Below are positions 2,650-48,128 of a DNA stretch of 48,128 nucleotides, piece after piece. The stretch is from IMG/VR virus record IMGVR_UViG_2529292716_000011. One strand, given 5' to 3'. The notes beneath the pieces are model-generated. The model ran no database searches. It worked only from the letters and a program-made list of their open reading frames with translations, and was not told the DNA's origin. The stretch's first letter is position 1, and each line of letters starts with the position of its first letter. The DNA comes from a virus (taxonomy: Duplodnaviria > Heunggongvirae > Uroviricota > Caudoviricetes). The translations under genes were made by a program, and so were the position numbers.

Positions 2650-2810
2650 TTTATCAGTTCGCTCCCATCCGTACCAGTCCGCAAAATCCCCTGAATATCA
2701 AGCCTTCCGTATATTCACGGTTCGTCATGGTTCGCGTCAGATCGTTGACAGCCGCACTCCATGACGGGTAAAAAGTGGATAAAATAATTTTACCCACCGG
2801 ATTTTTACCC

Positions 2811-3968
2811 ATGCTCACCGTTAAGCAGATTGAAGCAGCAAAGCCGAAAGAAAAACCATACCGCCTTCTCGATGGTAATGGCCTGTACCTTTATGTTCCT
2901 GTATCCGGGAAAAAGGTATGGCAGCTTCGCTACAAGATTGACGGTAAGGAGAAAATCCTGACCGTCGGAAAATATCCGCTTATGACTTTGCAGGAAGCAA
3001 GGGATAAGGCATGGACTGCGAGGAAAGACATCTCGGTTGGCATCGTTCCGGTAAAGGCGAAAAAGGCTTCGTCTAACAACAATTCATTTAGTGCGATTTA
3101 CAAGGAATGGTACGAGCACAAGAAGCAAATCTGGTCAGTAGGCTATGCAACTGAACTTGCCAAAATGTTTGATGACGACATTTTACCCATCATCGGCGGT
3201 CTTGAGATTCAGGATATTGAGCCGATGCAACTGCTGGAAGTAATCCGCAGATTTGAAGATCGCGGTGCAATGGAGCGAGCCAACAAAGCCCGCAGAAGAT
3301 GCGGCGAGGTTTTTCGTTACGCTATTGTCACCGGAAGGGCTAAATATAACCCGGCACCTGACCTTGCAGACGCCATGAAAGGATACCGCAAGAAGAACTT
3401 CCCGTTCCTTCCAGCAGACCAGATGCCTGCATTCAACAAAGCACTGGCAACATTTTCAGGAAGTATCGTATCGCTCATTGCGACCAAAGTTTTACGCTAC
3501 ACAGCCCTAAGAACAAAAGAGCTTCGTTCCATGCTATGGAAGAACGTCGATTTTGAAAACAGGATTATCACCATCGACGCCAGTGTGATGAAGGGACGCA
3601 AAATTCATGTGGTCCCGATGTCAGACCAGGTGGTTGAACTTCTCACTACGCTAAGCTCAATCACCAAACCAGTCTCAGAGTTTGTTTTTGCCGGGCGCAA
3701 CGATAAGAAGAAGCCAATCTGCGAGAACGCGGTATTGCTTGTGATCAAACAAATCGGCTATGAAGGTCTGGAAAGCGGTCACGGATTCAGGCATGAATTC
3801 AGCACGATTATGAACGAGCACGAATGGCCTGCTGACGCTATTGAAGTGCAGCTGGCACATGCCAACGGCGGATCTGTGCGCGGTATTTACAACCATGCTC
3901 AGTATCTCGATAAGCGCAGAGAAATGATGCAGTGGTGGGCGGATTGGCTTGATGAAAAAGTGGAGTAA
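2811..3968 (+). CDS. intS: P4-type tyrosine integrase (IntS-like)
   Basis: Integrase translation immediately downstream of the tRNA 3' end; start chosen at ATG 2811 (MLTVKQIEAAK, 385 aa); the ORF track's upstream start 2775 gives 397 aa. Confidence 0.85.
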   Translation: MLTVKQIEAAKPKEKPYRLLDGNGLYLYVPVSGKKVWQLRYKIDGKEKILTVGKYPLMTLQEARDKAWTARKDISVGIVPVKAKKASSNNNSFSAIYKEWYEHKKQIWSVGYATELAKMFDDDILPIIGGLEIQDIEPMQLLEVIRRFEDRGAMERANKARRRCGEVFRYAIVTGRAKYNPAPDLADAMKGYRKKNFPFLPADQMPAFNKALATFSGSIVSLIATKVLRYTALRTKELRSMLWKNVDFENRIITIDASVMKGRKIHVVPMSDQVVELLTTLSSITKPVSEFVFAGRNDKKKPICENAVLLVIKQIGYEGLESGHGFRHEFSTIMNEHEWPADAIEVQLAHANGGSVRGIYNHAQYLDKRREMMQWWADWLDEKVE

Positions 3969-4114
3969 TCCGGACCGTACTTCTTTATCCAGGCATAAAG
4001 GCTGTGGGTAGTGATATCGAGACGTGTTGCAACGCTGGCAACAGAATAACCGCGATCAACAACCTGTTTGACTGCTTCAGTTTTAAACTCTTCGGGATAA
4101 CGCTTACCGCTCAT
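3969..4114 (-). pseudogene. IS3-family transposase OrfA, N-terminal fragment (truncated)
   Basis: HTH-type OrfA start (ATG at 4112-4114); similarity ends at KKYGPD, after which the frame reads the antisense of the intS 3' end. Confidence 0.6.
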
Positions 4115-4177
4115 GGGCACCTCTCTTTAAGCCATCTTAAATGACTCTGAGGTGTCTGTTAAACCCGTGGCGATTCA

Positions 4178-7528: not shown

Positions 7529-10500
7529 TATGCGAGCCTCACAATATAGTTAAATGCGATGTTTTTGACGGTGTTTTCCGCGTTACCAGCAGCGTTAACG
7601 GTGATGGTGTGTCCATGTGAACCAATCGCAACAGAGTGCGTATGAGCACCAATACCGACAGTATGCGCGTGTGCACCCGCAGATGCTGCTGTGCCGGACA
7701 GTGAGTGTGTATGGTTTCCTTCTGAAGATGATTTACCTACCCATTGGGAGGTGCCACTGGTTAATGAGCCACTGATACCAACCTGATTAGTCCCGCTAAC
7801 TTGAGTACTCCCTGCCGGAAACATTCCAGTAGGTTGACTCCCGCTATTCGTTCTGGGCCCAGTCTGACTATGTTGGTGGGCCCCAGCTGAACTTGTAGAG
7901 CCGCTCAGACTGTGCGTATGCGCCCCGGTGTTATTCGTGGATTTAGTGCCGTAATCAAACGACGATGTGGTTTTCGTCCCCAAATCCGTACTGGATGCGC
8001 TGGCGCTGTGGGTGTGCGATTTAATGCCATCCTGTTCCTGAGACAATACGGCACGACCACTGGCGGGCTTGCCCTTAATCGTCCAGCCACGCATATCAGG
8101 GATCACGCCTGACGGATAAGCGGCTGCAAGTTTCGGGTAAGCAGATTTGTCAAAAGTCTGCCCCTGCATCAGGGCATAACCAGACGGAACGGTATCTGAT
8201 GGCCACGGGATTGGTGCACCGACTGGATAAAACTCTGCAGGAGGATGAGCCGAGGTGTAAAGCTGCGCCCACGGCGACCAGTTTGCGTCGGTCGTATCCC
8301 GTCGTGAACGAATAAATGCCGGAGCATGAGCACCGCTTGTACCACTCCAGCCGATGAGTAACTCACCTTCGCCAACGGCTGTCATCCCTTTCAGGTGAAT
8401 GATATTTCCATACGCTGTTGGATATCCGTTGTTATACACCTCGTATAACTCAAGACCTGCTGCCCCCTGCGTATTGTCTGTCAGCGCGGCTACCCGACCT
8501 TTTGAAGCCAGATTAACTGATGATACTGCTGTTCCACCTGACGGTAGCGCCCCGATCTCTGATGCCGTTGGCTTATTTCTGGAGTTATAGTCCCTTCGCC
8601 AGCCAGGTGAATAATCTGTTCCGTGATTAATATAGGTAAACTGGGCGTTGGTTGTTCCGCCACCGCTGGATGTGGTCGGAGTGGTAATGCGGATCGTCAT
8701 CGCTGACTTTATCCCCATTACTTCAATGACAGCTCCGGCGAGATGAATATTACCGCAGCCAGTATCAGTAATGATTTTATTATTGCCATAAGACCAGGAA
8801 CCCTTGCACATCCAGTATGGATGGTTAAATGCTCCCTGAGAATCCAGCCACTCGATAAACTGTGCAGTCGTCCAGTTTCCTGTTGTTGTGCTTACTGACC
8901 CACCGAAGGCACGGCAGGCACCAATATTTTTCGTAAAGGTGTCTTTGCCAGGGATATCCGCACCGTTCTGATCTTTCTGCAGACGTTTCTCAGCATTGTC
9001 ATTGGCTGCTTTTACTGCCTTTGGCGTTGCCGCCAGCGTTTCAGACGTGCTGTTGGTCGCGCTGCTTAGCTGGATTATCCCTTTCTGTGCTGTCGTTGCA
9101 TCCTGTGCGGTGTATTTCCCGTTAGCCAGGTCATACGCGGCCTTAACGGCTTTTGGTGTTGCCGCCAGTGACTCGGAAGTGCTGTTAGTCGCACTACTGA
9201 GCTGTACTATCCCCTTTTTCGTCGTGCTCGCATCCTCAAGCGCCACGGCGGATGCAATATCCTCTGCCCGTTTTGCCGCTGTCTCAGCGCGCGTTGCTGC
9301 AGATTCCGCCGTACTTTTGCTCTGAGCTGCTGCCGTCGCACTACCAGCAGCCTCTGTCGCCTTCGTGGATGCCGTCGTGGCGCTGCCCTTCGCTGCTGAC
9401 GCCTGTCTGGTCGCCTCATCTTTTGAAGCAGACGCCGATGATGCCGATGACGCCGCCGAACTGGCGGACGATGCGGCAGCCGTTTTTGAGGATTCTGCAC
9501 GGGTTTCCGACGCTTTCGCGTTCGTTTCGGATGTCTTCGCTGCGGAAGCTGACCTCGCTGCTGCCGTGGCCTGCTCAGTGGCTTCGCCAGCCTTCGTTGT
9601 GGCTGTTGAAGCGGATGATGCGGCGCTTTCTGCCGATTTTCCGGCGGCGGTGGCACTGGCTGAGGCCTGCCCGGCACTTGTTGACGCGGCGCTGGCAGAC
9701 GACGCAGCCGCTGTTTTTGAGCCTGCCGCAGCTGAGGCACTCTGTCCCGCTGCCGTTTCAGAAGACCTGGCGTTCGTCTCGGACGTTTTGGCCGCCTTCG
9801 CAGAATTTGCAGCCGCCGTCGCCGAGGAAGCTGCGCTACTGGCGCTTGATGATGCGTTCGTTTCTGATGATTTTGCCGCCTCTTTTGAAGCCGACGCATC
9901 CCGGGCTGAGGTGGCAGCTTCTGACGCTTTCGTGGTCGCGGTGGATGCAGAAGTGGCTGCTGATTGTTGTGACGCTGCCGCATTCGTTTCTAACGTTTTC
10001 GCCGCACCGGCACTGGTAGCCGCCGCGCTTTTTGAGGACTCTGCAGCGGCAGCACTTTTTGAGGCTTCAGTGGCCTTTGTTGATGCCGTTCCTGCGCTGG
10101 AAGACGCTGACTGAGCCGACGAAGCGGCCTGTCCGGCTGACGTGCTGGCTGCACGTGCTGAATCTGCAGCATCAGTCGCATGGGTTGCCGCCTCACGGGC
10201 TGATGTGCTGGCATCGCTGGCTGATTTCTTCGCGGCTGCCGTGTTCTGTGCCACCGCGGACGCGTTACGCGCCACCTCTTCCACCATCAGCTCAAAACGG
10301 CGCAGTGCCTCCGGACGGGCATCATCCTCCGTCATGGCACCGAGAAAATCATTCAGCGTACCGGGTCGGGAATCTTCATACACGGTGATGGTCCCGGCAT
10401 GTGACGGCGGGAATCCTTCCACCAACAGAATAACGCTGTACTGACCGTACTCAACGTCCATGCTGTAACGCCCGGCTTCATCCGGATTTTCTGAGGCCAG

Positions 10501-10617
10501 CGTGTTCACCACCACCGTGGTGCTGTTACGTTTTGCTTTCAGCTGGATTGTGCAGTTCTGTACCGGTTTTCCTGTGCCGTCTTTCAGTACACCTGAAATC
10601 TTTACTGCCATATTCAC
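7528..10617 (-). CDS. stf: side tail fiber protein Stf with expanded Ala/Ser/Thr-rich repeat shaft
   Basis: 1029 aa; lambda Stf-like N-terminus, long low-complexity repeat core, His/Gly-rich C-terminal receptor domain (HTHS, HAHT motifs). Confidence 0.8.
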
Positions 10618-10662
10618 CCCACAAAAAAGCCCGCCTGAACCGGCGGGCTGTCATAACACTGT

Positions 10663-36558: not shown

Positions 36559-37641
36559 ATGAAAAAATTAACAGTGGCAATTTCTGCTGTAGCTGCATCA
36601 GTACTGATGGCGATGTCTGCTCAGGCAGCTGAAATTTATAATAAAGACAGTAACAAGCTGGATCTGTACGGGAAAGTTAATGCTAAGCACTACTTCTCCT
36701 CTAATGATGCAGATGATGGTGATACTACTTATGCCCGTCTTGGCTTCAAAGGTGAAACCCAAATCAACGATCAACTGACTGGTTTCGGTCAGTGGGAATA
36801 TGAATTCAAAGGCAACCGCGCTGAATCTCAAGGTTCCTCCAAAGATAAAACCCGTCTTGCCTTCGCTGGCCTGAAATTCGGTGACTACGGCTCCATCGAT
36901 TACGGCCGTAACTACGGTGTAGCATACGACATCGGTGCGTGGACTGACGTCCTGCCAGAATTCGGTGGTGACACTTGGACTCAAACAGATGTGTTCATGA
37001 CTGGTCGCACCACTGGTGTTGCAACTTATCGTAACAACGACTTCTTTGGTCTGGTTGATGGTCTGAACTTTGCTGCTCAGTATCAGGGTAAAAATGACCG
37101 CACTGACGTAACTGAAGCTAATGGTGATGGTTTCGGTTTCTCCACTACTTATGAGTATGAAGGATTCGGTGTAGGTGCAACCTATGCTAAATCTGACCGC
37201 ACTAATAATCAGGTTATCTACGGTAACAACAGCCTGAATGCATCTGGTCAAAATGCTGAAGTATGGGCAGCTGGTCTGAAATATGATGCGAACAACATCT
37301 ATCTGGCTACCACCTATTCTGAAACCCAGAACATGACTGTTTTTGGTAATAACCATATTGCCAACAAAGCACAAAACTTCGAAGTAGTTGCACAATATCA
37401 GTTCGACTTCGGTCTGCGTCCGTCCGTTGCTTACCTGCAATCTAAAGGAAAAGACTTGGGTGCGTGGGGTGATCAGGACCTGGTTGAATATATTGATGTA
37501 GGTGCAACCTATTACTTCAACAAAAATATGTCCACTTTTGTTGATTACAAAATCAACCTGATTGATAAGAGCGATTTCACGAAAGCATCTGGCGTTGCTA
37601 CCGATGATATCGTTGCTGTAGGTATGGTTTACCAGTTCTAA
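36559..37641 (+). CDS. nmpC: outer-membrane general porin (NmpC/OmpD-like), intact
   Basis: Start at [23 protein letters not shown]; porin translation with C-terminal aromatic residue; sits between Q and the lysis cassette on the opposite strand as in DLP12. Confidence 0.85.
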
Positions 37642-37771
37642 TTTGATTACTAAAAGATATGTTGCGGGAGGCTTTGCCTCCCCAACATATAAGTGGCTCC
37701 CTCAAGCCACTTCCTTTAGGAGCACAACCTTGCTTCTAACTATATAAACCTTCTGTTATATATTACCCTTT

Positions 37772-37803
37772 ATTTTTGGGGGCGTTGCAACGCCCCATTT
37801 TTA
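37772..37803. terminator. bidirectional rho-independent terminator between porin and Q
   Basis: Perfect palindrome ggggcgttgcaacgcccc flanked by T-runs on both sides. Confidence 0.7.
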
Positions 37804-37829
37804 ATAATTTTTAGTAAACAATTGGCATA

Positions 37830-38228
37830 TTAATTAGAGTTATTAACAACGATATCCATCTCTAACCGGATATCTAATGCCATTAACATCCCTTCAATTA
37901 TGCCCTCAGCCTTCTGTAACCTTTTCCCGATATAACCATCAGAGCAGCAATGCTTACCTGCCAGTGACATGAATGTCATACCGACTACATAATAATCTAC
38001 TAATAAATCGTGCAAATCGCTGTTGTTCTTTTTCAGACGGGCCATGCACCCGCAAATAATCATCGCGTCATCGTCACAACATTGCGGGCGAGATTTTACT
38101 TTTGAAGTAATTAATCCCTTAAAACCGGCGGCAATGGACGACCAGGTCACATCTTCATGATTATTAGCCGCCCACGCTCCCCAACGCTCAAGAACCATCT
38201 GAATATCACGCATCAACTTACTCCACAA
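37830..38228 (-). CDS. Q: late-gene antiterminator Q (phage-82/DLP12 QuuD type)
   Basis: Cys-rich zinc-binding translation ([16 protein letters not shown]); true start may be the internal MRDIQMV. Confidence 0.85.
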
Positions 38229-38435
38229 AAATCAGACCAGAACGCCAATTACAAGCAAAAATCAACAAAACAGTATTAGTTGATTGTTATCTCTGACTTC
38301 ATACTCCTGCTCCTGTCAGGGTTTTGGCGTAATTCTTCAGTATTCGGTAATCGGTCAAAACAGAACCGGGGAAACGATATAAGCGCAGATGCCCCCAGCG
38401 GTGGCGAAGAAGTTCTGCCATATAAAACTCAAACA

Positions 38436-38798
38436 TCATTCATTCCCCATTTCGGTGATGGTCAGTTCCAGCCTCCCACCTTTGGTAACAGGCATCTTCA
38501 CAACGCGGTAATCAACGACCTGAGCATCATCCAGCCAGAAACCTGCTTTGGTGAGTGCGTCAAAAGCGGCTTTTTGCAGATTATCCAGGTCACGGCGACG
38601 GCGATCCGGCATGTGGCACTCAATACGGATTTTCACTGGCATAGCCAGGCCGATATCCAGCATTGCGTTTTTAATGATTCGGGTGACGTTATCGCGGTAT
38701 GCCTGCCCTTCTGCGCTGATGTGTGTGCGCCCGCGATTATGGCGGTAATAGCGGTTATTGCTCGGAGGCCAGGGTAATGTGATGCTGTAGGTATTCAC
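38436..38798 (-). CDS. rusA: Holliday junction resolvase RusA
   Basis: 120 aa; RusA-like. Confidence 0.9.
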
Positions 38799-39085
38799 GC
38801 CTTAATAACCCCCTCTTTCAGCCAGATAACCTGCGTTCTCGCCATACCTTCCAGCGCGCATTCTTTTGCATACTCAGCATCGACAAAATATGTGCGGCGG
38901 TCGATTTCGTCGTGACAGGCAGAACATGCAATGGTGGCAATCAGGTCTGGCGGTTTGATACCGGTACCGCACAATCCAGCCAGCCGGATATGTGCCAGTA
39001 CTGACGTTTCAGGATTGCCATTACATACGCCAGGGATTCTTACCTGGCATTCCCGACCACGCGCTGCTTTTCTCAAATCAGCCAT
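38795..39085 (-). CDS. ybcO: DUF1364 protein (YbcO-like putative nuclease)
   Basis: Cys-rich translation; start taken at [10 protein letters not shown] after an AGGAGG RBS (ORF track start 39124). Confidence 0.75.
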
Positions 39086-39248
39086 GATTCCTCCTTGCTG
39101 CCAGTCGCAACCATTTTTTATCAACCAGGCTAGCGGTATATCCGAGCAGTGTTGGTATTTCGGATGGCTTCAGCTCAGGCTTACGCTTACGACGATTTGA
39201 TACTCTGTAGATGTGCCCGTTCATGACACGAATAAGCGGTGTAGCCAT
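39078..39248 (-). CDS. ninE: NinE-like small protein
   Basis: 56-codon ORF below the ORF-track threshold, translated by hand ([56 protein letters not shown]); overlaps the ninB stop (TAATG) and the ybcO start. Confidence 0.6.
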   Translation of the reverse strand: MATPLIRVMNGHIYRVSNRRKRKPELKPSEIPTLLGYTASLVDKKWLRLAARRNHG

Positions 39249-39703
39249 TACGCCTCCTGCTTATCGCGCAGCTGCTGGTATTCACAGCTCTGCGGAATTG
39301 TCAGGTGGCAGCCGATATTCATCGCCCAGGCTTCGACTTTGCACAGGAAGATGTACATCTCGCCGGTTTCCAGCTCTGACGTATGGCGGAGGGATTGGAC
39401 GGTGGTGACCTCGCCGGACACGACATCTACACGGTCTTTGCTTTCGTAGCCGAGATAGGTGTGCTTCATCGCGTCTTTGACCCACTCAGGCGTAGCGAAG
39501 GTCTTGCCGCGGGCGATGAGATATTCGCTGATCTCCGTGTACCACATGTGGCTGAGCGCGTTCTGCGACAGGCTGCGCTTCTCGCGCCACGGCTTAACCT
39601 GCAGGCGTAAGCATTGCCCGGCATCCAGCAATGGCTGAATCTGCTGGCCGATGGCCGCGAAGTTACCGCGATGGAGTTTGATGCCGTCTACTGGCAGAGT
39701 CAT
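39248..39703 (-). CDS. ninB: NinB/YbcN-family recombination protein
   Basis: 151 aa; NinB-like motif RSLSQNALSHMW. Confidence 0.8.
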   Translation of the reverse strand: MTLPVDGIKLHRGNFAAIGQQIQPLLDAGQCLRLQVKPWREKRSLSQNALSHMWYTEISEYLIARGKTFATPEWVKDAMKHTYLGYESKDRVDVVSGEVTTVQSLRHTSELETGEMYIFLCKVEAWAMNIGCHLTIPQSCEYQQLRDKQEA

Positions 39704-39967
39704 ACGGCCTCCCTAACGGAAACCGCAGAATGCAGAAAATCGCAGGTGCATTTCTGCATCTGTGACAAGGTGATGAGTTCAGATTGTGGTCGCATTTAAG
39801 TCCCCTTAAATGCGCAGAAGTCACCGGAGTTGTTCAGGCTCCGATGAGAGGATTATGGCGGATTGATTACGATAAATCAAAACTATCTTGAAGCCAAAAC
39901 AGTGATCTTCGCTTTAAAAACCTTGTATACTTTCACCTAATCACAGCCAGAACTATGGATCTAACCA

Positions 39968-40345
39968 ATGACCAACAAAGAAAACAAAGATAAATATATT
40001 AACAAGTTCAAGAAAGAGCTTTCAAAATATATACAACCAACTGCTGGAGTGGACATTCAATTATTTAACTCTAAGGATGGTGGTGGTGTAATTAAAGCCA
40101 CTTTGAATAGAAGTGGAAAAAGAAAATCATCTATTGCTGGTAATTTTACTAAATTAGGTGAGGCAATTACCTCGAGTGGGCAGAGGGTTTTTGGTGGTGA
40201 TCTATCAAATGTGAATTTTTACGGAACAAATACGATTTTTGATGGAGATACAATATTTTTAATTAAATCACCTGATTCAGAGGAGTGGTCATCACAAAAA
40301 GCTTCCAAAGACGTAGAGGGCATCGTATTTGGAGGGAAAAAATGA
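39968..40345 (+). CDS. hypothetical soluble protein (125 aa), AT-rich
   Basis: Lys-rich; no signal peptide or TM; no family recognised; opposite strand to the nin genes. Confidence 0.55.
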   Translation: MTNKENKDKYINKFKKELSKYIQPTAGVDIQLFNSKDGGGVIKATLNRSGKRKSSIAGNFTKLGEAITSSGQRVFGGDLSNVNFYGTNTIFDGDTIFLIKSPDSEEWSSQKASKDVEGIVFGGKK

Positions 40346-40427
40346 TTAACATTACTACTAAGGATGCACTCAAGTCAGTGGTGAAGTAAGAGATCTAGTA
40401 ATTCTTCTTGAAACTGATGGAAAAACG

Positions 40428-40769
40428 GTGTCTGATTATTTGCAGCCAATCCCTCCCAAAAAAGATACACACTGGAGCATGATTTTCATTCCGGTAGCAA
40501 TTTATATACTACTTAATCTTGTATACATTATTGCTCACCCATTATTTCCTGAAAAATATCTAAAAACATCAACATCTATATTTCTATTCATTTCCTTCAT
40601 ATTAAGTGCAATAGTAGCATATTTTGTTTTCCATAAGCATAAATCTGCCACTCTATCCATATGCAGCTTAGTGTTCTTAGTGTTAATTGTAGGTGCTAAC
40701 GTAGGGTTTATCAGTTACAGCGACCTAACACAAAAAGCGACGCAAAAATTAGATAGTTTGTCTAAATAA
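40428..40769 (+). CDS. hypothetical small membrane protein (about 3 TM), AT-rich
   Basis: ORF begins at GTG 40428; a better start is ATG 40479 preceded by GGAG; three hydrophobic helices. Confidence 0.5.
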   Translation: MSDYLQPIPPKKDTHWSMIFIPVAIYILLNLVYIIAHPLFPEKYLKTSTSIFLFISFILSAIVAYFVFHKHKSATLSICSLVFLVLIVGANVGFISYSDLTQKATQKLDSLSK

Positions 40770-41208
40770 TTATGTTGCCATGCGAAGTATGCATGGCTGC
40801 ATGTCTGCCTTCCATTTAAAATGGGCTAAGACCTATAACCCTAAATATTATTCTTTATTATCTTCTTTACCACTTCGGTGATGCTGCCAACTTACTGATT
40901 TAGTGTATGATGGTGTTTTTGAGGTGCTCCAGTGGCTTCTGTTTCTATCAGCTGTCCCTCCTGTTCAGCTACTGACGGGGTGGTGCGTAACGGCAAAAGC
41001 ACTGCCGGACATCAGCGCTATCTCTGCTCTCACTGCCGTAAAACATGGCAACTGCAGTTCACTTACACCGCTTCTCAACCCGGTACGCACCAGAAAATCA
41101 TTGATATTGTCAGCGCCAGTGATATAAGACGGTAATTCGCCATTTGGATTGTCCGCTCCACCCAACATGTTGTTTCCTTAAGGTTCTCACACCAGAAAGG
41201 ACATCAAC

Positions 41209-43178
<1,970 letters not shown>

Positions 43179-43259
43179 CGAAAGTATTTAGCGGGCATGA
43201 AAATGGCAAATAACGGTCAAACATCGTGGCGTTGACAATATGGCCATGAATGGCGTTGG

Positions 43260-43763
43260 ATGCCGGGCAACTGCACGCATTATGGGCGTTGGCCTCAACA
43301 CGATTTTACGTCACTTAAAAAACTCAGGCCGCAGTCGGTAACCTCGCGCATACAGCCGGGCAGTGACGTCATCGTCTGCGCGGAAATGGACGAACAGTGG
43401 GGCTATGTCGGGGCTAAATCGCGCCAGCGCTGGCTGTTTTACGCGTATGACAGTCTCCGGAAGACGGTTGTTGCGCACGTATTCGGTGAACGCACTATGG
43501 CGACGCTGGGGCGTCTTATGAGCCTGCTGTCACCCTTTGACGTGGTGATATGGATGACGGATGGCTGGCCGCTGTATGAATCCCGCCTGAAGGGAAAGCT
43601 GCACGTAATCAGCAAGCGATATACGCAGCGAATTGAGCGGCATAACCTGAATCTGAGGCAGCACCTGACACGGCTGGGACGGAAGTCGCTGTCGTTCTCA
43701 AAATCGGTGGAGCTGCATGACAAAGTCATCGGGCATTATCTGAACATAAAACACTATCAATAA
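43260..43763 (+). CDS. insB: IS1 InsB frame of interrupted copy 3
   Basis: 167 aa, one substitution relative to copy 1. Confidence 0.85.
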
Positions 43764-43911
43764 GTTGGAGTCATTACCCGCTTGCAGTAACGGCGAAAGG
43801 GGCAATGACAGCGCTGCCATGTCGACAAGAACTGGAATAGTGAGAAGTAAACGGCGAAGTCGCTCTTATCTCTAAATAGGACGTGAATTTTTTAACGACA
43901 GGTAGGTAATT

Positions 43912-45159
43912 ATGGCACTGAATATTCCATTCAGAAATGCGTACTATCGTTTTGCATCCAGTTACTCATTTCTCTTTTTTATTTCCTGGTCGCTGTGGTG
44001 GTCGTTATACGCTATTTGGCTGAAAGGACATCTAGGGTTGACAGGGACGGAATTAGGTACACTTTATTCGGTCAACCAGTTTACCAGCATTCTATTTATG
44101 ATGTTCTACGGCATCGTTCAGGATAAACTCGGTCTGAAGAAACCGCTCATCTGGTGTATGAGTTTCATCCTGGTCTTGACCGGACCGTTTATGATTTACG
44201 TTTATGAACCGTTACTGCAAAGCAATTTTTCTGTAGGTCTAATTCTGGGAGCGCTCTTTTTTGGCCTGGGGTATCTGGCGGGATGCGGTTTGCTTGACAG
44301 CTTCACCGAAAAAATGGCGCGAAATTTTCATTTCGAATATGGAACAGCGCGCGCCTGGGGATCTTTTGGCTATGCTATTGGCGCGTTCTTTGCCGGCATA
44401 TTTTTTAGTATCAGTCCCCATATCAACTTCTGGTTGGTCTCGCTATTTGGCGCTGTATTTATGATGATCAACATGTGTTTTAAAGATAAGGATCACCAGT
44501 GCGTAGCGGCGGATGCGGGAGGGGTAAAAAAAGAGGATTTTATCGCAGTTTTCAAGGATCGAAACTTCTGGGTTTTCGTCATATTTATTGTGGGGACGTG
44601 GTCTTTCTATAACATTTTTGATCAACAACTTTTTCCTGTCTTTTATGCAGGTTTATTCGAATCACACGATGTAGGAACGCGCCTGTATGGTTATCTCAAC
44701 TCATTCCAGGTGGTACTCGAAGCGCTATGCATGGCGATTATTCCTTTCTTTGTGAATCGGGTAGGGCCAAAAAATGCATTACTTATCGGTGTTGTGATTA
44801 TGGCGTTGCGTATCCTTTCCTGCGCGCTGTTCGTTAACCCCTGGATTATTTCATTAGTGAAGCTGTTACATGCCATTGAGGTTCCACTTTGTGTCATATC
44901 CGTCTTCAAATACAGCGTGGCAAATTTTGATAAGCGCCTGTCGTCGACGATCTTTCTGATTGGTTTTCAAATTGCCAGTTCGCTTGGGATTGTGCTGCTT
45001 TCAACGCCGACTGGGATACTCTTTGACCACGCAGGCTACCAGACAGTTTTCTTCGCAATTTCGGGTATTGTCTGCCTAATGTTGCTATTTGGCATTTTCT
45101 TCCTGAGTAAAAAACGCGAGCAAATAGTTATGGAAACGCCTGTACCTTCAGCAATATAG
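43912..45159 (+). CDS. cscB: sucrose:proton symporter CscB (oligosaccharide/H+ symporter, LacY family)
   Basis: 415 aa, 12-TM MFS permease; translation recognised as CscB from memory; no cscK/cscA/cscR nearby. Confidence 0.8.
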   Translation: MALNIPFRNAYYRFASSYSFLFFISWSLWWSLYAIWLKGHLGLTGTELGTLYSVNQFTSILFMMFYGIVQDKLGLKKPLIWCMSFILVLTGPFMIYVYEPLLQSNFSVGLILGALFFGLGYLAGCGLLDSFTEKMARNFHFEYGTARAWGSFGYAIGAFFAGIFFSISPHINFWLVSLFGAVFMMINMCFKDKDHQCVAADAGGVKKEDFIAVFKDRNFWVFVIFIVGTWSFYNIFDQQLFPVFYAGLFESHDVGTRLYGYLNSFQVVLEALCMAIIPFFVNRVGPKNALLIGVVIMALRILSCALFVNPWIISLVKLLHAIEVPLCVISVFKYSVANFDKRLSSTIFLIGFQIASSLGIVLLSTPTGILFDHAGYQTVFFAISGIVCLMLLFGIFFLSKKREQIVMETPVPSAI

Positions 45160-45514
45160 ACGTAAACTTTTCCGGTTGTTGTCGATATCTCCCTATCCCT
45201 CAACCGGAAAATAATAATACTAAAGTGCTTAGCCCGGCTAATAATCACCTAATCCAAACGCCTCATTCATGTTCTGGTACAGTCGCTCAAATGTACTTCA
45301 GATGCGCGGTTCGCTGATTTCCAGGACATTGTCGTCATTCAGCGACCTGTCCCGTGTATCACGGTCCTGCGAATTCATCAAGGAATGCATTGCGGAGTGA
45401 AGTATCGAGTCACGCCATATTTCGCTATCAGGATTCTGTGTGATGGTTACATCGCCCGGCCCAGGGCTGTTTAGTCATCAGCGCTTTCTGACAGTGCTGA
45501 GATTTCAACCTGTT

Positions 45515-45650
45515 GCAGTAAAAATGAGTAGATATAAGGCAAGTGTGCTGCCAAACCCATCTTTTACGGGGTGCAACCTGTTGCAGTAAAAATGAGTAGA
45601 TATAAGGCAAGTGTGCTGCCAAACCCATCTTTTACGGGGTGAAGGTAGAT
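45515..45650. repeat. perfect tandem duplication, 2 x 68 bp
   Basis: 45515-45582 and 45583-45650 are identical (caacctgttgcagtaaaaatgagtag...ttttacggggtg). Confidence 0.95.
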
Positions 45651-45667
45651 TTCGTTTGAAGGGTATC

Positions 45668-45682
45668 TGGTGTCCCCTGCAG
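45668..45682 (-). other. att-like core: inverted 15-nt copy of the argW 3' end
   Basis: tggtgtcccctgcag is the reverse complement of the last 15 nt of the tRNA (ctgcaggggacacca, through CCA); similarity stops at the tRNA terminus. Confidence 0.6.
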
Positions 45683-45755
45683 ACATCTACTTGAGGCGGC
45701 AGGGGATTGATTGGAATGCTGTTTTTTAGATTTGAAAAATATTTTACCCGCTATT

Positions 45756-45956
45756 TTACCCATTGGCGCGGCTTAAGAGCTTATTTTTGAATTCACAATG
45801 GTCACGATATAACCATCTTGCTCGTCCGTGGATAACTTTGGCTTTAGGCAGGTCGCCGGACTTAATCCGGTCATAGATGAAGGTCTTACCGAAGCCAGTA
45901 TCAGCCATGATGAATTTCAAATCAACCAGTGAATCAGGTTGTAGTTCGTGTTGCAT
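45756..45956 (-). CDS. torI: AlpA/TorI-family excisionase-like DNA-binding protein
   Basis: 66 aa; winged-helix AlpA signature; length, N-terminus and position at the far end of an argW island fit the KplE1 RDF TorI (identity from memory). Confidence 0.6.
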   Translation of the reverse strand: MQHELQPDSLVDLKFIMADTGFGKTFIYDRIKSGDLPKAKVIHGRARWLYRDHCEFKNKLLSRANG

Positions 45957-46078
45957 GAGTGCTATCTCCGAATATGGAATCGAACCTGCAAATCAGGCAA
46001 TAAAAAGCCGCATTGATGCAGCAATGGTAGGTCTGGATATCTTGAGAAATGAACAGGCCTCATCGAGTGTGAGGCGGG

Positions 46079-46423
46079 TTAGTCCTTGCGTAGCTCGCTG
46101 ATTCTTCTGTAAGTCTCTGGTGCTTTGTTCCCGTACGTCTTCATTTCAGACTTCAACAGAGCAACGAGTGAATCCCATTCGTTGAGGATTCCTTTGAATG
46201 CCGGAACGCGCTTTGCAACCTTGTCGAATGAATCTCTGATTTCTGGAATCTGCTCAACAAGTGCAACGCATCGCCGAAAGTCTGCTGCGTCATGGGGAGC
46301 GCCGAAGTGATGACCATAGATATTCTTTTTCAGGCCACATGCGATTGAGGCAAGAGTTGCGCTACTGATGCCGACATCGCCAGTTGATTGCCATTTCAAA
46401 ACCTTCATAGCCAAATCTGACAT
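46079..46423 (-). CDS. hypothetical protein (114 aa)
   Basis: No family recognised. Confidence 0.5.
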   Translation of the reverse strand: MSDLAMKVLKWQSTGDVGISSATLASIACGLKKNIYGHHFGAPHDAADFRRCVALVEQIPEIRDSFDKVAKRVPAFKGILNEWDSLVALLKSEMKTYGNKAPETYRRISELRKD

Positions 46424-46739
46424 TTCTTGTCTCCATAAAACAAAACTCGCCGTAGCGAGCTCAGATAAAAGAAATCCCCGTCAGTGCGAGGATGCTGTTC
46501 ATTGCTGCTATACACTTTTTTGCTCTCAACGTAAGCGGTAGCCCATTCTGTTGGGTTGGTCAGTTGCTTTTAGGAAATGCTCTTTACCCCTTAAACGTCG
46601 GCTGAAAGAGCTAAAATCCATGCAAAAAATTTACGCAATTTTGTGTATTATTGTGCAGTAAGTAATGAGCTATTTTCTGTGCAAAAAATGGATGATAAAT
46701 TTGTCCGGGGCAGGAAAAATTTTATGGGCGCTAAACATG

Positions 46740-47267
46740 AAAAAAGATTCGTATCCTTATTTGATTTGCATGACAGTTTCAGGGCTGATCTTTATTTTCC
46801 TTTTCTTCTGGTGGCGGGCAGATATCTACAGGGTCACGTTTCTTAATCAGAGTATATCCCACTATTACATTCTGTTTAGCATGGGAATAGCTTTTCTGTT
46901 ATCTCTGTTTTGGGTTAAGAAGGGGATAGTAAAACAAAGCGGCTGGAAGAGTCTGTCAGCATACCTTAAGGTTTATGCAGGGATATGCATATTTTCTGGA
47001 TTTTTTCTGATTATACCCCTTACAACACTAACTTATTTTTTGCCTGGAGAGACATCGTCTTATGTTGCACCGTATCGGTATACTTCCGGTAGTTCAAAAA
47101 GTTGTTCTGGAGCTGAGGTGGATGACCCCGATCTACATGAGAATATTCGCATTTGCTATCCGTATGGCAATTATGAGTACGATAATATTATCTATGTTGA
47201 AAAGAAAATTAATACATTAGGTGCGGTAGTGACATATGCACAGACCGCGCGTGATGATACTGAATGA
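46740..47267 (+). CDS. hypothetical membrane protein with Cys-containing C-terminal domain, AT-rich
   Basis: Likely start at MKKDSYPYLICMTVSGL (ORF track start 46665); 3-4 TM segments, then a soluble tail. Confidence 0.45.
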   Translation, partial: KKDSYPYLICMTVSGLIFIFLFFWWRADIYRVTFLNQSISHYYILFSMGIAFLLSLFWVKKGIVKQSGWKSLSAYLKVYAGICIFSGFFLIIPLTTLTYFLPGETSSYVAPYRYTSGSSKSCSGAEVDDPDLHENIRICYPYGNYEYDNIIYVEKKINTLGAVVTYAQTARDDTE

Positions 47268-47415
47268 GATAGTATATAGCGGGCAAGTTTTAGTTAATTT
47301 ATCGAGGTAATATAATTTACCTCGACTCGTTTATTCTGGTATGAATATTTCGCTTTACGATCGATTTTTATCTGATGATATCATGCGGTTTTCATATACT
47401 GACTTACTGTCTTTT

Positions 47416-48128
47416 GGTAATGACTCCAACTTATTGATAGTGTTTTATGTTCAGATAATGCCCGATGACTTTGTCATGCAGCTCCACCGATTTTGAGAAC
47501 GACAGCGACTTCCGTCCCAGCCGTGCCAGGTGCTGCCTCAGATTCAGGTTATGCCGCTCAATTCGCTGCGTATATCGCTTGCTGATTACGTGCAGCTTTC
47601 CCTTCAGGCGGGATTCATACAGCGGCCAGCCATCCGTCATCCATATCACCACGTCAAAGGGTGACAGCAGGCTCATAAGACGCCCCAGCGTCGCCATAGT
47701 GCGTTCACCGAATACGTGCGCAACAACCGTCTTCCGGAGACTGTCATACGCGTAAAACAGCCAGCGCTGGCGCGATTTAGCCCCGACATAGCCCCACTGT
47801 TCGTCCATTTCCGCGCAGACGATGACGTCACTGCCCGGCTGTATGCGCGAGGTTACCGACTGCGGCCTGAGTTTTTTAAGTGACGTAAAATCGTGTTGAG
47901 GCCAACGCCCATAATGCGTGCTGTTGCCCGGCATCCAACGCCATTCATGGCCATATCAATGATTTTCTGGTGCGTACCGGGTTGAGAAGCGGTGTAAGTG
48001 AACTGCAGTTGCCATGTTTTACGGCAGTGAGAGCAGAGATAGCGCTGATGTCCGGCAGTGCTTTTGCCGTTACGCACCACCCCGTCAGTAGCTGAACAGG
48101 AGGGACAGCTGATAGAAACAGAAGCCAC
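47416..48128 (-). mobile_element. IS1 copy 4, cut by the window end
   Basis: End ggtaatgactcc at 47416; insB 47431-47934 and insA 47853-48128 intact; A6C motif intact. Confidence 0.93.

Follow-up and report, generated by a model that had tools for sequence, protein, structure and literature searches.

The repeat between the sucrose permease gene cscB and the excisionase gene torI is very probably a neutral tandem duplication that arose spontaneously and very recently from 68 bp of DNA without function, and that is private to DNA of the Shigella sonnei 866 type. The window, by which we mean the whole stretch of 48,128 nucleotides analysed here, carries two identical copies of the unit head to tail. 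Every relative that was compared carries one copy, and part of the unit derives from the decayed DUF4942 gene in which the array begins. The copies were identified by Tandem Repeats Finder as a single array at 45506-45641 with a period of 68, 2.0 copies, 100% matches and 0 indels. A pattern search found exactly two copies of the unit with 0 mismatches, at 45506-45573 and 45574-45641, and 0 in 100 shuffles. The first copy represents the ancestral sequence that is single-copy in other genomes, and the second is identical to it.

An earlier note on this DNA had described a perfect 68-bp tandem duplication between cscB and an att-like core. This description was confirmed, as the copies are 100% identical, but the array had been placed at 45515-45650, which is a register 9 bp too far to the right. 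When the DNA is read in that register, the two "units" no longer agree in their final 9 bases (CAACCTGTT vs AAGGTAGAT). The distance from the array end at 45641 to the att core at 45668-45682 is likewise 26 bp and not the 18 bp given before. This spacer (45642-45667) is bacterial B' flank that was untouched by the duplication. There is no partial third copy at the array edges, where exactly 2.0 copies were counted, and the edges of the unit share 0 bp of microhomology (...GAGATTT/CAACC...GGGGTG/CAACC...GGGGTG/AAGGT..., with slashes at the edges).

The junction of the two copies at 45573/45574, represented by the k-mer TTTTACGGGGTGCAACCTGTTGCA, is novel DNA that was found only in the window and in CP022672.1, the genome record of S. 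sonnei strain 866. The junction also makes a perfect 6+2+6 palindrome (TGCAAC-CT-GTTGCA, 45572-45585), of which the ancestral left edge has only CAAC-CT-GTTG. This palindrome may be a coincidence or a clue to a hairpin-associated origin. Three ORFs of at least 40 aa cross the copy junction, namely 45428-45628(-), 45440-45589(+) and 45564-45686(-), so the first of them is not the sole overlapping ORF that it had been taken for. The same ORF had been judged spurious, and this judgement stands: because 68 is not a multiple of 3, the 66-aa ORF changes frame between the copies, it exists solely owing to the duplication, and its product is not on record. When all three junction-spanning ORFs were used as exact-match protein probes, none was on record, although such a negative carries little weight, since gene callers seldom predict ORFs in this DNA.

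Copies of the unit in close relatives and across genomes

The unit is present in about 2,455-2,496 of 5,426 complete E. coli genomes and wholly missing from about half of them. Genomes that carry it have it in 1 place (lowest, median and highest count alike), always on the chromosome and always at the same locus. It was single-copy in the loci L001-L005, L008-L017, L020-L023, L025-L027 and L029-L037, and was not found in six dsdC-flank loci that were fetched with the same torI (L018, L038-L040, L045 and L047). To look for the tandem itself, we used a probe of 54 nt that takes 27 nt from each side of the copy junction, with which megablast seeds solely on the true junction. An 80-bp junction query was dropped because both of its halves align to the unit, which leaves one-copy and two-copy genomes inseparable. 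The 54-mer had no megablast match in any of the 5,426 complete E. coli genomes; a probe of the same design across the ordinary left boundary matched 2,496. A junction 24-mer had 0 matches among 185,579 GTDB species representatives and 0 in JGI metagenomes.

The lineage of the window was reached via exact-protein look-ups with the 114-aa and 200-aa prophage ORFs that adjoin torI, the exact CscB and TorI proteins being too widespread to single it out. Ten complete genomes have the window's IS1/IS21 arrangement (CP044151, CP061367, CP104423, CP049169, CP179952, CP180280, CP179990, CP109775, CP064376 and CP049183), and each of these sister genomes carries one copy of the unit (10/10). When the relatives were compared base by base, the sister loci were 99.92-100% identical to the window, with 0-2 differences per ~11 kb and likewise 0-2 per alignment block of 2.5-9 kb.

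The only other genome record with two copies was CP022672.1 (S. sonnei strain 866; loci L028/L048), which has the identical 136-bp tandem. It shows 1 difference from the window in the 11,513 bp of 36616-48128, and this lies at 47922 inside an IS1 copy. At this position in the right IS1 the window has T and CP022672.1 has A; among the sisters, T is also present in CP049169.1 and CP049183.1, against A in the remaining eight, so that this position is polymorphic, or reflects IS1 gene conversion or polishing noise. The window has no exact RefSeq E. coli match because it is S. sonnei 866 or a near-identical isolate. In CP022672.1 the 200-aa ORF is listed as a 652-nt range (3501-4152 / 10001-10652) and flagged "does not translate to query", yet at the DNA level it is 100% identical to 46601-47420, and the flag looks like an annotation or coordinate oddity with no sequence difference.

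A recent duplication had been one of two explanations offered earlier for the perfect match of the copies, and the distribution bears it out: the unit is single in ten near-identical sisters and doubled only in strain 866-type DNA. The comparison of one versus two copies across genomes that had been proposed along with it gave a second copy in none of the genomes searched except CP022672.1. The second explanation, selection for identity, is unnecessary, because recency accounts for the identical copies, which are too young to have diverged.

We consider it unlikely that the tandem is an assembly or polishing artefact, in which one true copy would exist and the second would have been made during HGAP/Quiver/Pilon consensus. 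The absence of the junction from every other genome and metagenome searched, the single copy in all ten sisters and the perfect identity of the copies could all result from such an error. However, strain 866, a clinical isolate from 2000, was assembled with HGAP3/Quiver from 107x PacBio RS II data of a 20-kb library and corrected with Pilon using 250-bp paired MiSeq reads; reads of either type are long enough to cross the 136 bp (PMC6128377). In addition, the window differs from CP022672.1 at one base, so that two records may carry the tandem. To our knowledge, neither sequencing method invents clean in-register 68-bp tandems in unique sequence, and private short duplications are common real variants.

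The chromosomal flank and the origin of the unit

At its left end the window has the order yfdF-mlaA-yfdC, followed by argW (2575-2649, +), a tRNA-Arg(CCT) gene whose 3' end is the attL core (2635-2649). An IntS-like tyrosine integrase is encoded at 2775-3968 (Pfam Phage_integrase and Arm-DNA-bind_3), and the long run of ORFs after it, up to about 40 kb, can be read as a lambdoid prophage. The repeat lies between cscB and torI. Its left neighbour cscB (43912-45159, +) encodes the sucrose permease of the LacY family (Pfam LacY_symp, E=2.6e-193; annotation in homologous loci). torI (45756-45956, -), which encodes the 66-aa excisionase or RDF, was identified from the ORF list and the RefSeq annotation of the homologous gene in locus L001, and lies 115 bp from the repeat. 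At 45168-45211, directly past the stop codon of cscB, two 11-bp arms (TTTTCCGGTTG...CAACCGGAAAA) form an inverted repeat around a 22-nt loop. This possible 3' structure of cscB was not flagged by the terminator scan (loop >8 nt).

The attR core of the window (45668-45682, -) is 15 nt long (CTGCAGGGGACACCA), identical to the 3' end of argW, and forms the start of the tRNA-Arg gene in the non-lysogens L002 and L005. The phage-side (P) arm of attR lies on its other side and reaches into the 3' end of torI. We take this arm to be 45683-45779 from the published attR-IHF2 primer CTCTTAAGCCGCGCCAATGG, which is the reverse complement of 45760-45779.

Where argW carries no insertion (L002 and L005), the order is cscA-cscK-cscB, a flank of about 440 bp, argW(-) and yfdC, and the unit is present as a single copy in the cscB-argW flank, 27-94 nt past the 3' end of the tRNA gene. 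The flank with the unit also adjoins other elements inserted at argW. In O157:H7 (L003) this is a resolvase-type island, and in FDAARGOS_1257 (L004) the flank is followed by the core TGGTGTCCCCTGCAGG and then by CP4-type island DNA. Because the unit flanks intact argW as well as unrelated argW insertions, it is host-side (B') DNA, and the repeat lies beyond the argW attachment site on the chromosome, outside the prophage. A match (H35) that ended almost exactly at the right edge of the unit had suggested an old deletion or island boundary, but this idea was rejected: homology continues to the core, and megablast had stopped at mismatches.

The flank contains a decayed DUF4942 gene relic (45247-45533, -). 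In it, one frame encodes residues ~76-151 and includes an internal stop, and a second frame encodes residues ~38-65. Short partial pieces of a "DUF4942 domain-containing protein" were annotated by PGAP in the flank (L002, L003). In tblastn, an intact DUF4942 protein of 281 aa (L006) matched 45474-45247 over residues 76-151 with 50% identity and one in-frame stop (E=5e-19), and 45533-45450 in the other frame over residues 38-65 (E=0.005, in a tiny local database). At the DNA level, 45446-45533 is 74-78% identical to intact DUF4942 genes, with a local alignment score of 61, as against 18 on average and 28 at most for shuffles. The matched intact genes are found in CP4-44-type islands in the order YeeU antitoxin, CbtA, DUF5983, DUF957 and DUF4942. 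The relic thus resembles the DUF4942 genes at the distal end of CP4-44/CP4-57-type islands, past YeeU/CbtA, DUF5983 and DUF957, in frameshifted and stop-containing form, but differs from them in that only about 115 of the 281 codons are still detectable in the flank and 40 nt of the unit have no detectable homologue.

The 5'-most detectable part of the relic, 45506-45533, is the first 28 nt of the unit and corresponds to decayed codons ~38-46 of the pseudogene. For the other 40 nt a detectable homologue was not found; a tblastn similarity between the right part of the unit and DUF4942 residues 4-19 had an E value of about 3-5 and was not accepted as evidence. DUF4942 homology is unbroken across the left edge of the unit (45505/45506), and the duplication endpoints therefore delimit no element. 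Nothing suggests any expression of the relic. Across five diverged alleles the unit is conserved no better than its flanks, with 7/68 differences in L004 and 7/68 in L005, the latter including a 2-bp deletion. This lack of conservation, together with the lack of motifs, argues that the duplication is neutral. The cscB-argW flank with the relic is found in about half of E. coli, and its presence implies that an older island was once inserted at argW, before the csc genes and the present prophage.

Candidate functions of the unit

In both copies, the minus strand carries a weak terminator-like hairpin (GGCAGCACACTTGCC, then TTATATCTAC) that was picked up by the terminator scan (45538-45552 in copy 1 and 45606-45620 in copy 2). 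This strand is the sense strand for torI and, in non-lysogens, for argW. The unit could then be a functional cis element, either a natural argW/torI terminator formed by the hairpin GGCAGCACACUUGCC and a U-rich tail or a small RNA, and its doubling would strengthen termination of torI read-through into cscB antisense. The presence of one hairpin per copy on the appropriate strand (4 regional sites vs 0.9 expected), the lack of any other terminator-like site from the torI stop codon to the repeat, and the folding of the 136-nt minus strand, which is somewhat better than that of shuffles (z=-2.1), are consistent with such an element. However, the stem has 5 pairs including one G-U, the tail UUAUAU is poor, and it is not conserved: its first T is C in L003, L004 and L005, and in L005 two tail bases are also deleted. 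We would not regard the hairpin as a conserved terminator. It shares with intrinsic terminators downstream of tRNA genes a small G+C hairpin and a T-rich tail about 48-62 nt past the argW 3' end on the argW strand (in non-lysogens), but differs from them in its weak 5-pair stem and poor, unconserved U-tract, and termination is putative here. In addition, the unit is missing from about half of E. coli, including the six fetched dsdC-flank torI lysogens.

A small regulatory RNA had been named as one of the elements to be expected at this position, and the searches spoke against it. Rfam 15 gave 0 matches at E<=10 on both strands of 45100-46100, sigma-70-like promoter sites numbered 0 vs 2.2 expected, and the single unit folded no better than shuffles on either strand (z=+0.92 on the plus strand and -0.84 on the minus strand). 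The variants of the unit consist of an indel and tail substitutions with no compensatory pattern, a variation too small for a formal covariation test. Taken with the weak hairpin, these results make a cis-acting or RNA function of the unit very unlikely.

It is more doubtful still that the duplication is non-neutral, in the sense that the doubled hairpin beyond attR, or the additional 68 bp between attR and the cscB 3' end, would alter torI 3'-end formation or read-through. The doubled hairpin may have a small effect on torI read-through. TorI acts both as an excisionase and as an anti-response-regulator. No result of the analysis speaks for such an effect; if the duplication were non-neutral, it might add to a phenotype of S. 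sonnei 866, a strain noted for its unusual susceptibility to lysogenisation (PMC6128377).

The position of the repeat near the att core and the excisionase gene had also led the earlier note to expect integrase or RDF arm-type binding sites here. Arm-type and RDF sites lie within the phage arms (P or P') and are carried on attP. The unit is host-side (B') DNA that abuts argW in non-lysogens, and unrelated islands adjoin it in L003 and L004. The short distances to the att core (26 bp) and to torI (115 bp) are the one point that speaks for an integrase arm-type, RDF or IHF binding module of attR that has been doubled to alter intasome architecture. In the KplE1/HK620/Sf6 module, five TorI sites (GTTCG, GATCG, GTCCG) and the P' arm-type sites are located on attL, overlapping the intS promoter, and a 135-bp attR of KplE1 suffices for excision in vitro (PMC2951348, PMC3509656). 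By analogy with K-12, whose B' flank differs in sequence, a 135-bp span from the primer site at 45760-45779 ends near 45645; the repeat ends at 45641 and lies outside this span.

The TorI pentamers GTTCG, GATCG and GTCCG were found on neither strand of 45506-45641 or 45642-45780. At the attL of the window, six TorI-type pentamers lie at 2657-2744 beside argW, and this cluster between argW and the IntS-like gene (2775-3968) matches the published KplE1 attL layout (PMC2951348). Individual pentamers are GTTCG at 2657, 2720 and 2730, GTCCG at 2677 and GATCG at 2740, and a GTTCG at 2626 is inside argW. The unit has no k-mer of at least 8 nt in common with either phage arm. The 7-mer AGTAGAT, common to the unit and the P arm, was rejected as a site and attributed to chance, as about 1 shared 7-mer is expected by a rough estimate. 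The window thus resembles the KplE1/HK620/Sf6 argW module in its argW core, its IntS-like integrase, the TorI pentamers by argW and torI by the other core. In contrast, the repeat falls outside this module, in host B' DNA, and is free of its motifs, and the unit was not found in the fetched dsdC-flank lysogens that have the module. We therefore give a binding module of attR hardly any credence. DNA on the host side of an att core does not belong to the recombination machinery just because the core and an excisionase gene are nearby, and a false lead is removed. Finally, there is next to no chance that the unit belongs to a dispersed repeat family (REP/BIME, ERIC or MITE-like) and was doubled by chance, as its nested imperfect inverted repeats (GTAAAAATGAGT...ACCCATCTTTTAC around GGCAAGTGTGCTGCC) might suggest, since this was already refuted by the copy-number counts, with exactly one place per carrier genome, always chromosomal and always at the cscB-argW locus, and the only weaker paralogues, DUF4942 coding sequences, match no more of the unit than its first 28 nt.

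Inverted surroundings, formation and significance of the duplication

The locus is enclosed by a pair of inverted IS1 arms. The left arm (43238-43778), which encodes IS1 transposase, is 541 nt long and ~100% complementary to the right arm (47416-47956), with one mismatch, at 47922. Between them lies the 3,637-bp segment 43779-47415, with a 62-bp cscK stub, cscB, the duplication-bearing relic, attR, torI and two ORFs of the prophage. The limits of this segment are exactly those of the homology to ordinary E. coli loci (43779-47415), and it is inverted relative to the standard argW-prophage-csc order. The inverted arrangement was common to 11/11 S. sonnei genomes sampled and is not present in ordinary E. 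coli. The rearrangement is an IS1-mediated inversion. This inversion, bracketed by the inverted IS1 copies, is the simple cause of the inverted att core that had been noticed earlier.

The attL core (2635-2649, +) and the attR core (45668-45682, -) are in opposite orientation, and therefore IntS/TorI recombination should invert about 43 kb and not excise the prophage. The argW prophage is presumably locked in by the IS1-mediated inversion, and this surrounding rearrangement is more instructive than the duplication. An IS21-family element (IstA 41209-42381, IstB 42378-43178; region 40932-43778) has split the left IS1, and both IS1 pieces, 40932-41112 and 43238-43778, pair with the right IS1 copy. 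The cscK gene is destroyed: a 3' stub of about 62 bp (43779-43840) remains next to cscB, and further cscK (PfkB) fragments are found in the sister genomes past the right IS1 (window 47957-48128), where an IS3-family element interrupts them and IS4 follows. With cscK reduced to fragments, the sucrose locus is presumably non-functional.

We propose that the tandem was formed by one illegitimate, homology-independent replication or repair event that copied 45506-45573 head to tail. This event would have affected the ~500-bp stretch of chromosome from cscB to the argW att site, a decayed remnant of a DUF4942 gene that an older CP4-type island left behind, only very recently on the line leading to strain 866. 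Neither the att core nor the 26-bp B' spacer, torI or cscB was altered. Short tandem duplications in bacterial chromosomes arise by RecA-independent illegitimate recombination or slippage, and are unstable and strain-private. Slippage-type duplications normally use short direct repeats. Classical slippage between such repeats is an unlikely source here because the junction is blunt, 0 bp of microhomology being atypical for replication slippage. By recombination between its copies, the tandem should eventually collapse to one copy.

Identical head-to-tail copies, a novel junction, a single copy in relatives and endpoints off element boundaries are the features of a tandem duplication, and all were found. 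Short direct repeats at the endpoints were not, which does not affect its status as a tandem duplication. Compared with spontaneous short tandem duplications in general, the present one is alike in being confined to one strain and absent from its clonal relatives, in endpoints that avoid functional boundaries and in its location in dispensable DNA; it differs in the 0 bp of microhomology and in the palindrome at 45572-45585.

The duplication was previously undescribed, yet is an ordinary case of a known kind of mutation and provides one example of homology-independent short tandem duplication. It carries little biological weight and would be useful, if at all, for marking S. sonnei 866-type isolates.
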